A stretch of DNA of 51,095 nt, from positions 1 through 51,095 of the IMG/VR virus record IMGVR_UViG_3300040801_001309; one strand, written 5' to 3'. Source of the DNA: a virus. The translations under genes were made by a program, and so were the position numbers. The notes below the pieces were generated by a model that made no database searches, was not told where the DNA came from, and worked only from the letters and a program-made list of their open reading frames with translations. Shown piece by piece: positions 7,062-34,565 of this stretch; position 1 is the stretch's first letter; each line of letters starts with the position of its first letter.

Positions 7062-9251
7062 ATGGCAACAACAGATAGACGTACACCTTGGGTTTACATA
7101 GATGTTGAAGATAAATCATATGTTGCTGAATCTATTGAAGTTGGACGTGCTGTTTATATTGCTGGTATGTGTCAAAAAGGAAGACATAATCAAGTAGTGA
7201 CATTGACTTCTGCTGATGGTTACTTTGAAGAGTTTGGTACTCCACATTTTAACACTACAACACAGAGTTGTTACAATATGGCAAATGCATTAACACTTAC
7301 AAATAAAGCATATTTTGTAAGAGTTATGCCTTTTGACTCTAAAGTTTCTAACGTTGTTATTAAAAGACAGGAAACTATTGATCCTATTACTTGTAGTTTT
7401 ACATTTAGTGAAGCTCCAACCGATGTTGTTAGTAGACCATTCCCGGAAGATTATGCTGCTGGTGAATTAGATTCACAATATATTGCAGATAAAAATGCAT
7501 ACGACACATATATTTCAGCACTTGAAGATTCAAAAACAGCAACAACTTCTAATCAATCTGATTTAGATCTTGTATCAGTTGGTGATTGGATTTATGCTGG
7601 TGATGATGAAGTTGAAAATGCTGTTCAAGTTGTTTCTAAAAGTTGGAGTGACGTTGACAGTGTTGGTACAATTTATCTTAGTAATGGATATGTTGGAAGC
7701 ACAGTAGATTGGGTAACAAAAGATGTAAGCACTATTTATAAATACAGTTCACATACAGTTGAACCTGATCCTCTCAATTTCGGATGGGATGTTAATAATC
7801 TCAATGTTGATCTTGATCCTACTGCATTGTATGCATTTTATGCTGTTGGTGCAGGAGATTATTATGATAGATATTTTATTAGAGGTACTAGAAATACAGA
7901 ATATGAAGCATTAGAAGTTGATAAAAAAACTGGAGATCCTCTTTATAAGTATCTATTTATGGATATTGCTGTTTATGAAAAACAAGACGATGGATCAACT
8001 AAATTAGTTGAAGGTCCTTGGACTGTATCCCTAGCAAACAGATATAGTAATGGAACTGTTATTCGTGACAGAATGAAAGCTTGGGAACACATGTTTATTG
8101 AAGATAAAATAAACAATAACAGCAAACTTATTAGATGTAAATCTAATTCTGATGAAGTGGAAGAACTTATTAGACCTGATGGTGAACTTAACGAATCTTT
8201 AGCCGAAAGAAGACGTTTGGAAGCAATGCTTCTTTTTTCAGCAGGAAATCTTGTTGGTACTAATTATGTTCCATCATTACAGACTCCAATTACACTTGGT
8301 GCTGGTGATAATGGTCATGTCGATTATGATCAAGGGTCAGGAGTGGATCCATCAATCCCAATGTATATTCGTGGTAAACTGCAAACAGCGCCACAGATAG
8401 AAGCTCTTATTGCTCAGGCATTTGCTGGTATAATGGATAGTGTTGATGGTTCTATTTCTAAAATGAGAGATCATATTTATCCAACATTTCAGCCGGACTA
8501 TGTTGTAACTGGTGGTTTTCCTGCATTCGTACAGGAAGCTGGAAGAGATTTGTGTGCTAACAGAGGAGATTGTTTCCATATTGCTGATACAGGATATAGA
8601 ACCAGTTATGAATCTGATTTGAATGCCAGACGAAATTTCTATGATTGGAACGACTATACTTCTATGCTGTATATTCAATATAGAGAAATTCGTGATCCTT
8701 GGACTGGTGAAAAGATCAAGATGAATCCATGTTATCATGCTATTGAAAGACATTTGTATGTTGATGGTGCATATTTCTTAAGTGAACCAGTTGCAAATAT
8801 TGAGAAGGGTGCAATTCCTGATGCTATTGATCTTGTTTATGAACCCAATCATACAGAACGTGGTGATTTAAGAGAAGCCAATCTTAACTACACAATTTCA
8901 GAACCAGACGGTAAATATTTCCTTGAACAGTTTACTACTTGGAAACAATTGTCTATTCTGAAAAGAGCACATGCTGCTAAATTTGTATGTTATTGTAGAA
9001 AGATGATTCCTGGTCTTCTTAAATCTCTCTTACAGAGAAAAGGAACTCCATTCTGGGTTAATCAGGCACAACAACGTGTTGAATATTTTATTAGTAAGTT
9101 CACTGACGAGAGTATGGGTCGTTATCATTCTCTTAGTAAAGCAGAAGTGTCAGTTTCTTTTGATGAACGAAGCAGTGAATTGAACGTATTGTTAAAAATT
9201 ACCCCTCTCAGAGCAATCGAGAGAATTAATGTACATATTGTTGTTGAATAA
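7062..9251 (+). CDS. Contractile tail sheath protein
   Basis: 729 aa with RBS AAGGAGAAATT-ATG. The N-terminus VYIAGMCQKGRHNQVVTLTSADGYFEEFG and C-terminus NVLLKITPLRAIERINVHIVVE fit the sheath family pattern. A tube-like gene follows directly. Confidence 0.7.
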   Translation: MATTDRRTPWVYIDVEDKSYVAESIEVGRAVYIAGMCQKGRHNQVVTLTSADGYFEEFGTPHFNTTTQSCYNMANALTLTNKAYFVRVMPFDSKVSNVVIKRQETIDPITCSFTFSEAPTDVVSRPFPEDYAAGELDSQYIADKNAYDTYISALEDSKTATTSNQSDLDLVSVGDWIYAGDDEVENAVQVVSKSWSDVDSVGTIYLSNGYVGSTVDWVTKDVSTIYKYSSHTVEPDPLNFGWDVNNLNVDLDPTALYAFYAVGAGDYYDRYFIRGTRNTEYEALEVDKKTGDPLYKYLFMDIAVYEKQDDGSTKLVEGPWTVSLANRYSNGTVIRDRMKAWEHMFIEDKINNNSKLIRCKSNSDEVEELIRPDGELNESLAERRRLEAMLLFSAGNLVGTNYVPSLQTPITLGAGDNGHVDYDQGSGVDPSIPMYIRGKLQTAPQIEALIAQAFAGIMDSVDGSISKMRDHIYPTFQPDYVVTGGFPAFVQEAGRDLCANRGDCFHIADTGYRTSYESDLNARRNFYDWNDYTSMLYIQYREIRDPWTGEKIKMNPCYHAIERHLYVDGAYFLSEPVANIEKGAIPDAIDLVYEPNHTERGDLREANLNYTISEPDGKYFLEQFTTWKQLSILKRAHAAKFVCYCRKMIPGLLKSLLQRKGTPFWVNQAQQRVEYFISKFTDESMGRYHSLSKAEVSVSFDERSSELNVLLKITPLRAIERINVHIVVE

Positions 9252-9262
9252 GGAGATATTAT

Positions 9263-10087
9263 ATGTCTTGTGCGACAAGTATTATAGATAGATATACAGA
9301 TAGTTTTAATTCAAGAATTAGTGGAAGAGAGCATCCTGACATTTTAACCAGAGATATTGGTGGTCATTTTAGAAAAAATGAACCATACACTTCTGGTTAT
9401 TTTCATATGGTTGCTGGTCTTCCAATGAAATTATTTAAAGATGAAAAAGGTGCTGAAGAAGCTTCTATTTGGCTTCACAGTACCTGTGAAAATTTTACTC
9501 CACACAGTGTTACAAGAGGCAAGGCCGATACTCCTGGTCTTGGTGGTAGAGGAGCTAGTTTCCAAACCAATACTACTATCACTAGAGAATTTGGTTTAAC
9601 ATTCAGAGAATATCAAAATATGCCTATTCTAAATATTATTAGAAGATGGTCAGCTTTTGATCCGTTTACTGGTGTATCTCCTCTTGGTGGTAATGAATTT
9701 ATCCCTACTAATAAGAAAGGGTGGATTTGTATCCTTCAGACCAAACCTGTTCGTGCTCAAGATGCTCCTTTGAAAGAAGAAGATCTTGAAGAAGTATGGG
9801 CATATGGTGGAGTATGGCCTGTTGGTGAACCAGTTGATACTGCTGCTGCTTCTGATATTGCAACAAATGATCAGATTCAGTTGTCTGTTCAGTTTAGCTT
9901 TGATGGTGCACCATTAACTGGTGGAGAACCTGGAGTTGCTGCTGCTGCTGTTAAATTACTTAACCAATATAAATTTATGTGTGAACAAAGTACTTATGGT
10001 AAATGGCTTAATGCTATGGTTCGTGACATGAAACCTTGGGGTACTCACAGTGATAGTACTGTTGATAGTACACTCTACGGTAGATAA
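9263..10087 (+). CDS. Tail tube protein (T4 gp19-like pattern)
   Basis: 274 aa with RBS AAGGAGATATTAT-ATG. Tube-like segments are SGYFHMVAGLP and CENFTPHSV...EFGLTFREYQNMPILNIIRRW. Its position is immediately after the sheath gene. Confidence 0.55.
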   Translation: MSCATSIIDRYTDSFNSRISGREHPDILTRDIGGHFRKNEPYTSGYFHMVAGLPMKLFKDEKGAEEASIWLHSTCENFTPHSVTRGKADTPGLGGRGASFQTNTTITREFGLTFREYQNMPILNIIRRWSAFDPFTGVSPLGGNEFIPTNKKGWICILQTKPVRAQDAPLKEEDLEEVWAYGGVWPVGEPVDTAAASDIATNDQIQLSVQFSFDGAPLTGGEPGVAAAAVKLLNQYKFMCEQSTYGKWLNAMVRDMKPWGTHSDSTVDSTLYGR

Positions 10088-13931: not shown

Positions 13932-14083
13932 AATAAATATCCTTTAGGAATTTCTATGATAAAATGATTTCGGACTTAATCCTGAAGTCTATGTATTTCC
14001 AACTACCACTGTATCGTTTTTTTGGTATAGCAATAGGCATAAAATAAAATCTCCTTGTTAATAAATAGTTTTTTGATTATTCC

Positions 14084-14980
14084 CTATATTTCTATATGTA
14101 GCTTTCCAATGTTCAAATCTTCAAGAATAATTTCACCACACATCTGTGCAATTTTCAAACATAGTCTTCCAGAAATGGTTGTACTCATCGCCAACCATTT
14201 ATTACTGAATCTAAAGCCACTCATTCCAGTCAAACCATAACTTGAGTTGGCATTAATCTTCATAGCTAATTGTCTTCTATCATATAATTGGTAAATATCA
14301 CTCGATGTTCCATGTTCCAATTCCGCTTGATATCGTTTCTTTTTATACTCATCACGCATGTTAATTCTATTACTCAAGAAATCATTCATTATTCCGAATT
14401 TATGTTCATGAGTATAAAACATACAACCTGATAGATTTAAATTTACATTTTTTTGTTTAACATAGTTTCCAATATTATTACCATCTAATCGTAAAATGGA
14501 TAATGTTGGATTAACTATATTTTCAATACTATATATATGATCTGATGTTACTTCCCCATTTAATAAATAATCATGACAGAAACTATTATATTCATTTCCA
14601 GATGGATGAATATCTGTATATAGATCTATAAACGGTATTAAATATAATTTACTTGTTAGCCAATCTTCTCTTGTTTTTGGATTGAATAAATCTCGTAGGG
14701 GTCTGTTTATTCGTTTCAATTTATTTAATAGATACATAATTATAAAATACATATTTTGTTTATATTCTTTTTTATTTTGTGGATCTAATTTTTCCACAAA
14801 ATTATAAACATCTTCTAATATGGCTAATGGTATTGCTGAATGTAAATCTTGGCCTGTTCCAAGCACAGGCCCAATGAAATTTTCAAGCATATTATATGCA
14901 AGTGGGTCTATTATTCTTCCCCAATATGTATCAAATGATATGTTATTTTCTTGCATTTTAGAAGGGTACAGTGCTTTTGC
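14084..14980 (-). CDS. Family-B DNA polymerase, exon 2 (motif A second half to motif B)
   Basis: The segment begins AKALYPS, the SLYPS part of motif A, and contains motif B as KINANSSYGLTG. The ORF-track TTG start at 14983 is probably intron sequence. Confidence 0.8.
   Translation of the reverse strand, partial: AKALYPSKMQENNISFDTYWGRIIDPLAYNMLENFIGPVLGTGQDLHSAIPLAILEDVYNFVEKLDPQNKKEYKQNMYFIIMYLLNKLKRINRPLRDLFNPKTREDWLTSKLYLIPFIDLYTDIHPSGNEYNSFCHDYLLNGEVTSDHIYSIENIVNPTLSILRLDGNNIGNYVKQKNVNLNLSGCMFYTHEHKFGIMNDFLSNRINMRDEYKKKRYQAELEHGTSSDIYQLYDRRQLAMKINANSSYGLTGMSGFRFSNKWLAMSTTISGRLCLKIAQMCGEIILEDLNIGKLHIEI
14088..14097 (-). promoter_or_regulatory. ATATAGAAAT promoter-like box
   Basis: Minus-sense CTACATATAGAAATATAG overlaps the last codons of PolB exon 2, upstream of 13617..13931. 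Confidence 0.4.
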
Positions 14981-15087
14981 CAAAATGTTAGCTACTAATT
15001 ACTTAGTAGTTCAGACTATATCATCTTGACAATTGTGCCAAGAATGTCGTGTAGTCGTTTGCTAGTAGTTATATATTTTAAGTATTG

Positions 15088-15097
15088 ATATAGAAAT
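15088..15097 (+). promoter_or_regulatory. ATATAGAAAT box in plus orientation
   Basis: This is the only plus-sense copy. It lies about 50 nt upstream of the plus-strand ORF 15148..15636. Confidence 0.45.
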
Positions 15098-15147
15098 ATA
15101 CATTATTAGTATGTATTAATAACTTTTATTTAACAAGGAGAATTATC

Positions 15148-15636
15148 ATGAGGAAAAAATTGACTATGTTGTCGGCGCTCATTTGTTTGATGTCTGTCTC
15201 AATTTGTTTTGGGGAGACAAGGTGTTGCCTCCCAGGAGTCACACCATCATTTGGGGTTTTCTTTAATAACGTTCAATTGGTTGACAACTTTTACATTGTT
15301 GTCAACGAAACTGATTTTACAGGAAAAGTAACACAATCTATCTTGACACCAATGGATTTGATTGATGGTCGAGTTGTATACCCATCAACACTTATTGCTG
15401 ACGCAGGATATACGCTAACTGTATCATCCGTAATGTTCTATCAAGATGATATTGGATTTGAAGGTACTTTTTGGTATGGTGGTTCTGTAATAAAAACTAT
15501 TCCAGTCACATCTGATTTGTCAGATGTGACAGAGATCTTCATTTATGTTAAGAAACAAATTTTCGATGTGAATGGTGATGGTAAAACTGGATTAGAGGAA
15601 GTGATATATATACTAAGAAGTCTATCAGGAATGTAA
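15148..15636 (+). CDS. Secreted protein with C-terminal dockerin/EF-hand-like Ca-binding motif
   Basis: RBS AAGGAGAATTATC-ATG. Signal peptide MRKKLTMLSALICLMSVSICFG. C-terminal motif DVNGDGKTGLEEVIYILRSLSG. It has its own terminator, is GC-elevated, and lies antisense inside the PolB intron. Confidence 0.7.
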   Translation: MRKKLTMLSALICLMSVSICFGETRCCLPGVTPSFGVFFNNVQLVDNFYIVVNETDFTGKVTQSILTPMDLIDGRVVYPSTLIADAGYTLTVSSVMFYQDDIGFEGTFWYGGSVIKTIPVTSDLSDVTEIFIYVKKQIFDVNGDGKTGLEEVIYILRSLSGM

Positions 15637-15642
15637 CTACTA

Positions 15643-15690
15643 CTGCGGGTGCTCCATAATAGGAGTTTCCCGCAGGAAGACATTTTTTTA
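15643..15690 (+). terminator. Terminator of the plus-strand secreted-protein gene
   Basis: CTGCGGG...CCCGCAG hairpin followed by a T-run (CATTTTTTTA). Confidence 0.6.
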
Positions 15691-15726
15691 CGTTTTCTAT
15701 TGCTAGAAAACGGGACACAAAAGTTT

Positions 15727-16974
15727 ATCCAAATCAGATATAACACCGTTGACTTGATCAACGATTTTACCATACCCTTCTTTAACATATGCTCCTACAT
15801 ATCTACTTAATATTTTTTTGTATATTTTTTGTTCAACGCCATTATTAATTGTCCATTTGATTCTATTATCTTTTGGCTTTGGTAGAGTATCAATTTCTTG
15901 TTGTGAAATACCAAAAAAGTTTTCTTTTGCAATGCCGTGTTTTACTCTTATTTTTTTTTGATCTAAAACATATGAAAAATAAGTATCAAATAATGCTGCT
16001 GGACCTCTCATACTAAGTCCAAGAGGAGTTTTCATATCCCTACGCAACATATTATGTAGTTCAATATGTCTGAGTTTAAGATCAAGTAATCTACAGAGGA
16101 CAACATCTATAACATTATATTTAATATATGTTTCAGGATGTTCTTCGTATAATCTGTCTAAATTTGTACCATCATCCTTGTAGTCTAATTTTTTTAATCC
16201 AAGTTCCGCATTTGATATCCAATCAAGAGTATACGATGGTTGTAATTTACCATAGTTTAATCCTGGATTCATTATTTCGCCACGAGGAGTATATAGATAT
16301 TTGATATCCATACTTGGTAAATCAGGAATAATAATAAATGTTCCTTTTTTACCCATTTTTCTTTCTTTTACTATTCCTACATGACTCATAATATCTGCTA
16401 CTTTTTGTCTATCTCCAAGAAGATTTAAAAGTCGACCATAGATATATGGAATATCATATTTATCGCTATTGAATCCTGATATTATGTGTGTATTTATACC
16501 ATGAATTTTATTAAACATGTCCGTAAGCATTTTAACTTCATCTGTATAAAGTAAAATCTTACAACTTTCATCATCATTAATATATCTGGTTTTATTTCCC
16601 TTTTTATCTTCAAATAATTCTTGTTTAATTTCTTGTTCTAATGCTGATATGTCTATATTTGCAATTTTTGTTTTAATTATATCCAGTACAAGAAAATAAC
16701 AAGTATAGCATTTCTCAATAGAGCTATAAATTGTTACTGCGCTTATTGGACTTACACATCCTTCTTCAACTTTAAATTTACCAGTGTTGTGAGTGTAAAC
16801 CTCAATGTCATGATATACTGTGTGTAAATTTTGTACAAGATCAATATTGTCATTTGGATATTTTAGATAATGTTGAATTGCGTAATATTGTTGTGGTTCT
16901 ACTTCGGCATTATAAATATTATCGTAATTTAATTTGCCTGTTTCTAGATTGTCTATTAGTTGATTAAAGTTCAA
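15727..16974 (-). CDS. Family-B DNA polymerase, exon 1 (3'-5' exonuclease domain to motif A Asp)
   Basis: Exo I is YHDIEVYT, Exo II is SGFNSDKYDIPYIY and Exo III is KYNVIDVVL. It ends in GAYVKE...GVISDLD, the first half of motif A. In the unspliced frame a stop follows 7 codons later. The start codon is TTG. Confidence 0.8.
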
Positions 16975-16977
16975 ATA

Positions 16978-17255
16978 TTATACATCCTCCTTTATTGTGT
17001 TTTTCCATAGCTTCCATTCTTCTTTTGTTATTTTATATTTATTATAAATATCTTTTGGAATACATGATTCGTCAATATATTCTGGATCAAACTCATAATC
17101 TTTTCCAAGAGTTTCTTTAGCCATAATATATCTATTTCCAATTTGAACACATCCAATACATGCACATTGACCATATTCTCCACCACACACCATCTGGTTC
17201 GCCAACTTTCCGGAATTGTTTCTATTATTGCATTAATTTCTTCTATAGTTTTCAT
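16978..17255 (-). CDS. Small Cys-rich hypothetical gene; two overlapping frames
   Basis: The frame starting at 17255 has the RBS (GGAGAGCACT-ATG) and a plausible N-terminus. The frame ending at 16978 has the plausible C-terminus (CGGEYGQCACIGC...KEEWKLWKNTIKEDV). Confidence 0.4.
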
Positions 17256-17267
17256 AGTGCTCTCCGT

Positions 17268-17310
17268 ATTTCTATATTGTGTTGTTAATTGTTAAATTCC
17301 GCCGCAATAA
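17268..17310 (-). promoter_or_regulatory. TTATTGCGGCGGAA-N21-ATATAGAAAT promoter-like element
   Basis: Both boxes are intergenic and lie upstream of the 17255 start. Confidence 0.5.
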
Positions 17311-21116: not shown

Positions 21117-21782
21117 TTATATTGAAATATGTTTCCACTTTTCACCGCTTTTAATACTTTTAATAATATATTTTGAAACATTAAGAGTTTTTTCTATGTA
21201 CCAACTTTTAACTCCTTGGGAAATCATTTTTTTAATTTGTTTTGCGACATCTTCTGTTATAATGGCGTTGCCATGTTTTTCACCAAAACAATGTAAATTA
21301 GTTTTAACAGCATGATCAATATTTGCTCTATGTGTTACAAGTTCTAAATTGTCAGGTTTATTATTTTGTTTATTTCCATCAATGTGATTGATCTCTAAAT
21401 TTTGATCTAATTGCCCTTTAAATTTTCGATATATTATTCTATGAACTTTCAAAAGTTTATTTTTATATCGTTGAACATGATATCGATTATCGTTTAATCT
21501 ATCACTTCTTCGCCAAGGATATGTTTTTCCATTAGCTGGAAATCCACTAAGGGGAACATTTGTCAAGATAGTTCCATCTTCCCGAATATCATATTGTGGG
21601 TCTGTAATGAGTTGTTCAATTAAATAATCATGCGAACCAGTATTTTTATTATTGCACCAATAATGTGCTGTACTTTTTGTTACTCTAAATTTATTAGCAA
21701 TCTGCTGATATGACCATCCCTGATTTCTTAATTCTCTTGCTTCTTCTTTTATTTCTTCTGAATATCTGTTACCTGTTGACAT
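21117..21782 (-). CDS. HNH homing endonuclease (paralogue 1)
   Basis: N-terminal HTH is WSYQQIANKFRVTKSTAHYW. The HNH core is EINHIDGNKQNNKPDNLELVTHRANIDHA. Confidence 0.8.
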   Translation of the reverse strand: MSTGNRYSEEIKEEARELRNQGWSYQQIANKFRVTKSTAHYWCNNKNTGSHDYLIEQLITDPQYDIREDGTILTNVPLSGFPANGKTYPWRRSDRLNDNRYHVQRYKNKLLKVHRIIYRKFKGQLDQNLEINHIDGNKQNNKPDNLELVTHRANIDHAVKTNLHCFGEKHGNAIITEDVAKQIKKMISQGVKSWYIEKTLNVSKYIIKSIKSGEKWKHISI

Positions 21783-23579: not shown

Positions 23580-24107
23580 TCTCCTTATAATTTTTGATAA
23601 AGTGCCAGCTCCGAGATACGAGCTCGGACGGCTCTAAGCCACATGCTTCTAGGGCATGCATGTCTACATTCCATCAAGCTGGCATGGTGACACTGGTGGG
23701 ACACGACCCCACAATCCCTTTCGGGCGCAAGATTTTCTTACCACTACAGTTTTCACTGCCACATAAATGTGTTTGTGGTCTGGACTATATCATCATCTCA
23801 GAATCTGAGATGTTCGGCGCTGTTAATGCTATTATTGGTAACTCTCCTCAAGCAATAGTCTCTGCACCTTCTACGATACTTATTGAGTATTCTCGTAGCT
23901 TGGCTCATGATTACCAGTTAAGGCTTCCATGAATTCACCGAATTCTATCATAGTATCACTACTATGTAGCTCAATAATCAAGTCTTGAGCGTATACATTC
24001 CGCCACAGTGTCATAATAATCTTTTTTTCTATTTAGGGAGTACCAACACGGCTTTCGCCGATGCTTTTGAGACATCTGTGTAACACCATACTCCCTTAAT
24101 GTTGAAT
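23580..24107 (-). ncRNA. Group I-like ribozyme region B, upstream of HNH paralogue 2
   Basis: R element GGTGCAGAGACTATTGC is at 23852-23868. The P8 hairpin CATCTCAG-ATT-CTGAGATG is at 23794-23812. S element GATGATATAGTCC is at 23782-23794, close to the classical AAGAUAUAGUCC. GNRA hairpins include CGGC-GAAA-GCCG and CAGT-GAAA-ACTG. Confidence 0.65.
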
Positions 24108-34074: not shown

Positions 34075-34565
34075 AATATTTAGACATGCGATATGCATAT
34101 CTGAAGTGGAGATGGCGGCTTCGAAGCCGCGTCCGCCCTATTACAAATATACGAATTTACACGCATAGTTCATGTTTAAGTTTCGATTATTAAGGATCAT
34201 GAACAACCCAATTATAATCTAGTTCACAAAATTAGCCTGGATAATACGTGAACTTACTATCCATTGTTCCACAGAAGTCTATCGGATATTTGGTTCAGAT
34301 CTGTGGGGTTCATTCCCAATCCGAGTAGCATTACGCTGCTACAGCAAAGTTATAATCGTCAGCGATTATTTTAAGGTTTGGATTTAACGCTTCGCAGCGA
34401 CGTGAATCATATAAATGTGTTAGTACGTCAAAGTCCAATTCATCCCCATATACTCCAACACTTCTGGAGAGTTATTATTCAATTTTATCTAACAATATAC
34501 ACTTCTGTGTATGATTTTTTCATGATCTTGTAGTACCAAAATAAGATCGTCTTTTTGAAATATGA
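34075..34565 (-). other. About 490-nt ORF-free, GC-elevated, highly structured region (candidate large ncRNA)
   Basis: Many hairpins occur in minus sense. They include CGCT-GCGA-AGCG, GTAGCA-GCGTAA-TGCTAC, AATCG-CTGA-CGATT, GCGGCT-TCGA-AGCCGC, AGTTCAC/GTGAACT, GTTCATG/CATGAAC, and the competing TCGGAT/ATCCGA and CCACAGA/TCTGTGG pairs. Confidence 0.4.

Follow-up and report, generated by a model that had tools for sequence, protein, structure and literature searches.

Can a group I intron in a phage replication gene carry, on the opposite strand and under its own control, a gene that is not an endonuclease? The current view of phage group I introns casts them either as carriers of homing endonucleases or as remnants without an open reading frame (ORF), and the question is raised by a polymerase locus in IMG/VR virus record IMGVR_UViG_3300040801_001309, all 51,095 bp of which we analyzed (hereafter the window). 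The window is an AT-rich metagenomic contig, also present as the same sequence in sibling samples of the Joint Genome Institute (JGI), and looks like part of a phage genome: it has a weak tail-sheath-like match, a T4-type RNA ligase, 13 tRNA genes, and an Rfam match to transfer-messenger RNA (tmRNA), with nearly all genes on the minus strand from ~10 kb onward. Its gene for a family B DNA polymerase (PolB) is interrupted by 746 nt (14981..15726, minus strand). Judging from the sequence and its relatives, we consider it likely that this insert is a group I intron that splices itself and houses an antisense, self-promoted cassette for an exported protein, which we call the cargo.

An insert between two codons of polymerase motif A

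Two minus-strand ORFs flank the insert, one (15703..16974) matching the exonuclease domain of family B polymerases and the other (14084..14983) matching the polymerase domain through motif B. Because they cover positions 87-390 and 406-555 of PHROG 262, respectively, we take them to be adjacent parts of one protein. Exon 1 (15727..16974, minus strand; Pfam DNA_pol_B_exo1) has an AGGAGG ribosome-binding site upstream and encodes the exonuclease domain and continues as far as the catalytic Asp of motif A, ending ...GVISDLD, and exon 2 (14084..14980, minus strand; Pfam DNA_pol_B) encodes AKALYPS... through motif B (KINANSSYG), with the protein ending soon after. At the nucleotide level, exon 1 ends ...GGT GTT ATA TCT GAT TTG GAT at 15727 and exon 2 starts GCA AAA GCA CTG TAC CCT TCT at 14980, which places the insert at the codon boundary between the catalytic Asp and AKALYPS (the D|A site).

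Excising 14981-15726 yields an in-frame protein of 714 amino acids (...GVISDLD|AKALYPSKMQENNISFDTYWGRIIDP...), with motif A reading in frame as ...GVISDLD|AKALYPSKMQENNISFD... and a predicted ligated exon junction of TCTGATTTGGAT|GCAAAAGCACTG. The initial annotation had proposed that removing these nucleotides joins GVISDLD to AKALYPS in frame, and a protein search bore this out: about 35 uninterrupted relatives (685-718 amino acids), covering 96-99% of the joined polymerase, align without gaps across the junction in the pattern ...D[ML]DATALYPS.MxQxNISFD..GRIIDP. Because the joined protein aligns without a gap at this point, the boundaries of the insert can be regarded as exact. No protein on record matched the spliced polymerase at high identity in this search. 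Followed into the insert, the reading frame of exon 1 meets a stop after 7 codons, and neither possible start of exon 2 is preceded by a ribosome-binding site; 27 of the 41 ORFs in the window have one.

The polymerase stops ~40 residues past motif B, as do the ~35 relatives of ~700 amino acids, and motif C (DTD) is not encoded anywhere in the 51-kb window. The family thus looks like a naturally split PolB, with the C-terminal half encoded elsewhere.

The insert can be folded as a group I intron

The case for a group I intron draws on the in-frame excision, the minimum-energy fold, a helix map that matches those of two complete introns from other contigs (L090 and L122), and a sub-threshold Rfam match to the 3′ core that we weigh below. 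As initially annotated, the 5′ exon ends in U, and its GGAU can pair with GUCC (15716-15713) to form P1, with a U·G pair at the splice site. This GUCC belongs to an internal guide sequence (15713..15723, minus strand) whose remaining CUUUUGU (15723-15717) can pair with GCAAAAG of the 3′ exon to form P10. A P2 hairpin, CGUUUUCUA-GCAA-UAGAAAACG (15691..15712, minus strand), appears in the minimum-energy fold and lies at the same place, with a wholly different stem sequence, in L090 and L122. The 5′ strand of P3 (AAUGUC, 15679..15684, minus strand) pairs in the helix map with GACAUU (15048-15043), forming a pseudoknot with P7. P4 and P5 (15643..15675, minus strand), found in both the minimum-energy fold and the helix map, read CUGCGGG-AAA-CUCC..GGAG-CA-CCCGCAG, in which AAA is the joining segment J4/5 and CA is J5/4. 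In the minimum-energy fold the 5′ strand of P6 (UAGUAGUUA, 15634..15642, minus strand; its complement contains TAA, the cargo stop codon) pairs with the 3′ strand of P6 (UAACUACUA, 15063..15071, minus strand), giving 9 bp that close a loop of 562 nt, L6 (15072..15633), which the helix map identifies as the site of the cargo cassette.

Downstream of P6 and J6/7 (GCAAAC), the 3′ half of the catalytic core (15014..15056, minus strand), identified by the Rfam R and S elements and by RNAalifold, comprises the P7 5′ strand GACUA, the P3 3′ strand GACAUU, P8 (CUUGGC/GUCAAG), J8/7 (AUGAUA), and the P7 3′ strand UAGUC. P9 (CUACUAA-GUAA-UUAGUAG), supported by the Rfam alignment, the fold, and RNAalifold, and the tail CUAACAUUUUG, which reads ...UUUUG with the terminal G included, make up 14981..15009 (minus strand). 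The structural features proposed in the initial annotation are recovered here: the insert ends in G (14981), a P8 hairpin (15042-15025) directly precedes the S element, and GNRA-capped hairpins lie at both ends (GCAA in the P2 loop, GUAA in the P9 loop). The proposed P7 pairing GACTA/TAGTC likewise stands (15056-15052 with 15018-15014), and the bulge proposed with it can be dropped, as none is needed. Unconstrained minimum-energy folding of all 746 nt recovered P2, P4-P5, the long-range P6, P7, P8, and P9, and the core helices P3-P9 fall in the canonical order of group I introns, including the P3/P7 pseudoknot.

Introns at the same site in other lineages

Searches of deposited genomes and viral contigs returned no close counterpart of the locus. 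Neither blastn with 14000-17000 nor tblastn with the junction region found a match among 50,697 deposited phage genomes, and the 3′ pattern of the intron had no match in viral contigs, where a scan with a polymerase profile yielded distant polymerases only. Scanning JGI metagenomes with an exon-2 profile gave 29 loci, none with an intron at the D|A site.

Complete introns at the same D|A codon boundary are present in three lineages: 746 nt in the window, 773 nt in L090, and 954 nt in L122, with polymerase exon 2 of the latter two 75% and 44% identical to that of the window. A further contig, L089, was found through P0047, a polymerase exon-1 fragment ending ...ADAD|N*; it has the same insertion site followed by a 167-amino-acid ORF on the opposite strand, and the complete intron of its type is the near-identical copy on L122. 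L004 holds another partial copy. Every lineage was seen in assemblies from more than one sample.

The P1 pairing GGAU/GUCC is identical in the window, L090, L122, L089, and L004. The three complete introns also share the same order of helices, similar L6 inserts (562 nt in the window, 553 nt in L090, and 562 nt in L122), and the junctions J4/5 (AAA), J5/4 (CA), J6/7 (..CAAC), J8/7 (GAUA), and J7/9 (UGA). Paired sequences differ among them: P3 is UUGUGUU/AACACAA in L090, where it is also present in the minimum-energy fold, and AAAAUUCU/GGAAUUUU in L122, and P7 changes from GACUA/UAGUC to GAUCA/UGAUC. Unlike the window intron, L090 and L122 have additional hairpins between P7 and the 3′ strand of P3, which we take to be P7.1 and P7.2 of subgroup IA. 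MAFFT left most helices out of register, and the full table of pairs was therefore made from a hand alignment, in which 40 of 45 aligned pair columns have both sides changed in at least one intron. Run on the automatic MAFFT alignment of loop-trimmed cores, RNAalifold recovered P7 and P9 with six compensatory pairs (two in P7 and four in P9) and none broken.

Several results weigh against the intron assignment. The Rfam model RF00028 has a gathering score of 50 bits, and at that threshold nothing matched at the polymerase locus; the covariance-model check suggested in the initial annotation fell short, at 22.6 bits (E 0.0026 in a 1-kb search), and on the polymerase introns of L090, L122, and L089 the same model found nothing at E ≤ 0.1. 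P10, a possible 7 bp in the window, amounts to 2-3 bp in the relatives, for which reason we give it little weight. The helices were picked by hand for each sequence, with only P7 and P9 recovered automatically, and the count of 40 of 45 is partly built in by that choice. Finally, a loose test in which any long-range stem counted did not reach significance, with 42 of 300 shuffles of the window intron and 49 of 300 of the L090 intron reaching the observed length. That test was replaced by a position-specific one, which required a stem as long as the observed one, with one strand in the 22 nt following the P4 3′ strand and the other in the 28 nt preceding P7; of 20000 shuffles per intron, 86 (window), 273 (L090), and 0 (L122) reached this length.

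As for the covariance model, its E-value alignment is local (15114-14992), covering ACGACUA, GAUAUAGUCU (the R and S core), and P9; it scores 22.5 bits (E 0.00028) on the 3′ part alone and finds nothing in the 5′ half alone. We mapped the fold directly because the Rfam model cannot bridge a loop of 562 nt.

The sub-threshold Rfam score could also be read to mean that nothing is spliced and that the polymerase is translated as two separate polypeptides with an unrelated gene between them, as in 43A/43B and nrdA/mobE of T4-like phages. Split essential genes are documented in that group (PMC2988022), and the present polymerase family, with no motif C in the window, already appears to be cut naturally after motif B. 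Against such an arrangement, the cut would separate the catalytic Asp from the rest of motif A, exon 2 has neither a ribosome-binding site nor a plausible start, and the boundary keeps the identical codon phase in lineages only 44-75% identical. All helices of a group I intron, moreover, are found in the insert in their proper order, and across three lineages the junctions are conserved and the helices covary. We consider separate translation highly unlikely and the insert almost certainly a group I intron, for which guanosine-dependent self-splicing is the predicted mode of excision.

An antisense gene within the P6 loop

The complete plus-strand gene that the initial annotation had placed antisense within the intron is indeed there: L6 holds an ORF of 162 codons (15148..15636, plus strand), supported by alignment with a homologue and by codon statistics. 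Its product has a signal-peptide-like N terminus, an ETRCCLP..TPSF motif, a predicted beta-rich body, and a C-terminal DVNGDGKTGLEEVIYILRSLSGM. No long ORF runs along the sense strand of L6. When the cargo sequence was shuffled 20000 times, a 162-codon open frame never arose.

The expression signals proposed for the cargo are also present, apart from the terminator. A strong Shine-Dalgarno sequence, AAGGAG (15135..15140, plus strand), lies 7 nt before the ATG, and a promoter-like box, ATATAGAAAT (15088..15097, plus strand), lies 52 nt upstream of it. The box belongs to an over-represented set: ATATAGAAA occurs 18 times in the window compared with 2.8 expected, a count reached in 0 of 100 shuffles, and 17 of the copies read on the minus strand, most of them preceding genes of that strand that have ribosome-binding sites; the cargo copy is the only one on the plus strand. 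Sites of ATATAGAAA(T) include 771, 784, 4927, 14097, 17277, 20711, 31854, 33447, 45154, and 50955, and its usual place is 20-70 nt upstream of a gene with a ribosome-binding site, so it is probably a promoter element of this phage. In L090, ATATAGAAAC stands 64 nt upstream of the cargo, and five copies of the box occur in 12.3 kb. The box scan also places a copy at 17269..17277 (minus strand), upstream of small ORFs preceding the polymerase. Because the same box precedes those ORFs, the polymerase and the cargo may be transcribed together, convergently. The terminator ascribed to the cargo turned out to be the reverse complement of P4-P5 (15643-15675) and is not canonical; a run of seven T residues (15683-15689) starts 7 nt past this antisense stem. 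L122 has a separate hairpin followed by seven T residues inside L6.

A full HMMER scan with the cargo found one full-length homologue, P0064 (160 amino acids, E 1e-13, 34% identity over the full length), the only homologous cluster among 1.84 billion representatives; a word-indexed protein search returned only the cargo itself. P0064 is encoded antisense in L6 of L090, L091, and L092, three contigs from three samples, in which the order is that of the window: exon 2 (minus), cargo (plus), and exon 1 (minus), with an RNA ligase downstream. The window and L090 cargos share the signal region, E[TE]RCCLP..TPSF, and a C-terminal FD[VI].GDGKTGLEE.IY.L..[LV][SA]G. Nucleotide identity between them is 48, 60, and 39% at codon positions 1, 2, and 3, the order (second > first > third) expected of coding sequence. 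L122 and L089 carry in L6 a different antisense ORF, also with an N-terminal hydrophobic segment, and the L122 cargo has no detectable homology to that of the window or L090. The known members of both cargo families occur only inside the D|A-site intron.

Within this setting the cargo diverges much more than the gene around it, with 34% amino acid identity between window (15148-15636) and L090 (3813-4295) compared with 75% for polymerase exon 2. Its GC content at third codon positions (GC3) is 0.30, 0.29, and 0.33 in the three lineages versus 0.10-0.21 in surrounding phage genes. The higher GC3 fits a foreign origin or turnover of the cassette, and the two differences together suggest either very fast evolution of the cargo or its repeated replacement.

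A putative exported protein with a C-terminal motif found in Desulfobacterota

The N terminus of the window cargo has three Lys or Arg residues among its first five, followed by a 15-residue window with a mean hydropathy of 2.37, in keeping with the signal peptide that had been proposed. All three cargo proteins begin with basic residues and a hydrophobic stretch and have no other membrane-like segment, and P0064 has an AFA|EE-like cleavage site. We read the segment as a putative Sec-type signal peptide, with a signal anchor as the alternative. At the other end, the dockerin- or EF-hand-like motif DVNGDGKTGLEEVIYILRSLSG noted initially is present, and the loop DVNGDGKTGLEE fits the EF-hand pattern DxNxDGxxxxxE. 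Pfam returned no dockerin or EF-hand match for the cargo.

Other results speak against a functional, exported product. None of the three cargo proteins has a family match in Pfam, PHROG, NCBIfam, or PADLOC; EF-hand proteins in a profile search of the PDB reached only sub-threshold E values of 0.7-1; and an AlphaFold2 model built from a two-sequence alignment, which suggests a beta-rich body and a C-terminal helix, is poor, with a mean predicted local distance difference test (pLDDT) score of 45.7. A terminator scan did not flag the P4-P5 antisense hairpin and its T run. The missing family and the low-confidence model, together with the single homologous cluster, would suit an intron that is real but whose plus-strand ORF is non-functional, either a chance frame or a decaying remnant. 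Against this reading, the window and L090 cargos, at 34% identity, both keep the frame intact along with its terminal motifs and coding pattern, and no shuffle preserved it; the ribosome-binding site and promoter box are conserved as well, and in L122 a second ORF with a hydrophobic N-terminal segment occupies the same place. A non-functional ORF is accordingly very unlikely in our judgment, and a functional, separately expressed cargo gene very likely.

The ORF could instead be a highly diverged homing endonuclease or maturase, comparable to I-DirII of the Didymium S956-2 intron. Antisense endonuclease genes do exist in nuclear group I introns (PMC3073962, PMC3679873), and P6 is among the listed locations of intron endonuclease genes (PMC3679873). 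The cargo, by contrast, has a signal-peptide-like N terminus, a body predicted to be rich in beta structure, and a C-terminal calcium-loop motif common to proteins from bacterial genomes, and the databases named above gave no nuclease or DNA-binding family match for it, including LAGLIDADG, GIY-YIG, HNH, His-Cys box, and PD-(D/E)xK. Polymerase introns at neighboring sites carry sense-strand ORFs, one of them HNH-like. We regard a disguised endonuclease or maturase as exceedingly unlikely, in line with the initial view that the intron lacks a homing endonuclease. IS605/IS607-type transposase domains (TnpA/TnpB) were also absent from the cargo.

The C-terminal motif, D[VI]NGDGKTGLEE[VA]IY.L....G, spans 25-30 residues (15565-15633 in the cargo, 1501-1569 in L123, and 1501-1884 in L124) and ends otherwise unrelated proteins; no Pfam or NCBIfam model covers it. 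In a scan of one genome per GTDB species, all six matches to the motif fell in Desulfobacterota, where it forms the extreme C terminus of larger proteins, one ending ...DINGDGKTGLEEVIYILQKVAGIR. The L124 protein matches the last 32 residues of the cargo at E 2e-8, and we rejected whole-domain homology as an explanation, the similarity being confined to those residues. P0066, a protein with a weak Cohesin-domain match, contains the same motif in repeated form. We also set aside P0065 (1681 amino acids, with ADGRF3-like repeats) as uninformative, since its weak similarity over 58 amino acids is summed over 13 repeats. The motif may be an undescribed docking or sorting motif. On this evidence the phage cargo would use a host-type C-terminal docking motif, and the host would be a member of Desulfobacterota.

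A model for the intron and its cargo

In the arrangement that we propose, the GUCC guide would pair with exon GGAU to form P1, the P3-P9 core would fold, the terminal G at 14981 would set the 3′ splice site, and exon ligation would restore DLDAKALYPS. On the opposite strand, the loop closed by P6 would hold a cassette consisting of the ATATAGAAAT box, a 5′ leader, AAGGAG, and the 162-codon ORF, its stop codon falling within the P6 stem. The product would be exported through its N-terminal Sec-type signal and would comprise a small beta-rich domain with a vicinal Cys pair, followed by a single EF-hand or dockerin-like loop. Because of the predicted export signal and the C-terminal end shared with Desulfobacterota proteins, the cargo is probably located in the host envelope or on the cell surface; our best guess for its role is a moron-type factor for host interaction or superinfection exclusion. 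L6 would be a site that tolerates cassettes, occupied in other lineages by a fast-diverged homologue or by an ORF without detectable similarity.

A broader proposal, which we offer tentatively and think doubtful as a whole, is that the P6 loop is an exchangeable slot for antisense, self-promoted genes encoding exported proteins, with homologous or unrelated cassettes exchanged in different phage lineages; that the intron owes its selective value to the cassette and not to an endonuclease, for instance because competing phages are shut out at the cell surface; and that the convergent cargo mRNA, perfectly complementary to 562 nt of the unspliced transcript, could tune splicing or polymerase dosage. 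Any coupling of cargo transcription to splicing is pure speculation.

If splicing and expression hold true, a ribozyme loop in an essential replication gene would be a stable site for envelope-directed accessory genes, and the cargo would have been kept over long evolutionary times while evolving much faster than its host gene. The locus would also offer a natural system for studying how antisense transcription through an intron affects splicing, and it gives a host clue (Desulfobacterota) for an uncultured phage group. Introns with large loop inserts escape covariance-model scans, so more cases may lie hidden among split polymerase fragments that flank an opposite-strand hypothetical gene.

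Other insertions in motif A and other elements in the window

In this polymerase family, motif A and its surroundings are a hot spot for selfish elements. Inteins interrupt relatives at DMDA|S...HN|TALYPS (the hot-spot proteins include P0017, P0046, P0056, and P0057), and some polymerase genes have an intein and an intron together. Insertions elsewhere in the motif occur after PGA in L005 (7261-8030), with a sense-strand ORF of 204 amino acids; after ALYP in L006 (7252-8309), with a sense-strand HNH-like ORF; and after ALYP in L008 (7237-7382), with an Rfam match of 54 bits before the contig ends. Antisense ORFs were seen only in D|A-site introns, and intron ORFs at the other sites are on the sense strand. 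Since most relatives are uninterrupted, the intron is an optional feature of the family.

A second group I intron (23737-23979, minus strand, within an Rfam match of 86 bits at 23761-23989) lies between U34 and A35 of tRNA-Leu(UAA) in the window, and excising its 243 nt gives a tRNA-Leu(taa) that ARAGORN accepts. In L090, an 88-bit Rfam group I match (9204-9435) lies among tRNA genes. A 2014 review placed every phage intron known at that time in a protein-coding gene (PMC3984707). The tRNA region of the window also contains a free-standing HNH endonuclease gene with an N-terminal helix-turn-helix (21117-21782, minus strand), conserved in L090 (9787-10464), whose product might act in trans as the nuclease of either the ORF-less tRNA intron or the polymerase intron. 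A phage-encoded tmRNA (34104-34447, minus strand) scores 98 bits with Rfam, and ARAGORN makes no call there.

Comparison with known systems

We found no report in the literature of a phage group I intron with an antisense protein gene other than an endonuclease, and neither 'antisense' nor 'opposite' occurs in the 2014 review of bacterial group I introns. Known systems share parts of the arrangement. The group I intron at mL2449 of fungal mitochondrial rnl encodes the ribosomal protein Rps3 and so likewise houses a non-endonuclease gene; it differs in being organellar and in carrying a housekeeping gene of the host on the sense strand. Morons are extra genes that lie between other genes of a phage, each bringing a promoter and a terminator of its own. 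The cargo resembles them as a small autonomous gene with a promoter-like box, an unusual GC3 (0.30 compared with 0.16-0.21), and a likely host-interaction product, but it sits in a ribozyme loop within an essential gene instead of between genes, and the hairpin proposed as its terminator is not canonical.

Group I introns in phage DNA polymerase genes are themselves classic, and their ORFs are sense-strand homing endonucleases (PMC3428280, PMC12908238, PMC3984707). The introns of SPO1, SP82, Bastille (I-BasI), and Pf-WMP3 (I-PfoP3I) are like that of the window in their location in phage DNA polymerase genes, and in them a sense-strand HNH or GIY-YIG endonuclease drives homing; the ORF described here, by contrast, is on the opposite strand behind a promoter box of its own, encodes a seemingly exported product, and has no match among nuclease families. 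The S956-2 group I intron of Didymium iridis likewise holds an antisense protein gene driven by its own promoter (PMC3073962, PMC3679873), although that intron is in eukaryotic nucleolar rDNA, its cargo I-DirII is a homing endonuclease, and expression involves Pol II, a spliceosomal intron, and a poly(A) tail. IStrons, which combine a group I intron with an IS605/IS607-type transposon, are bacterial-type introns with non-endonuclease cargo (PMC4227781, PMC10690162); that cargo is their own mobility machinery, whereas the cargo of the window matches no mobility-related family. Antisense transcription beside an intron-bearing gene of a lytic phage has a precedent in cyanophage S-PM2, where the antisense RNA CfrI lies opposite the intron-bearing psbA and a neighboring homing endonuclease gene (PMC2984593). 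CfrI is a non-coding RNA of ~225 nt, whereas the antisense unit in the polymerase intron encodes a protein.

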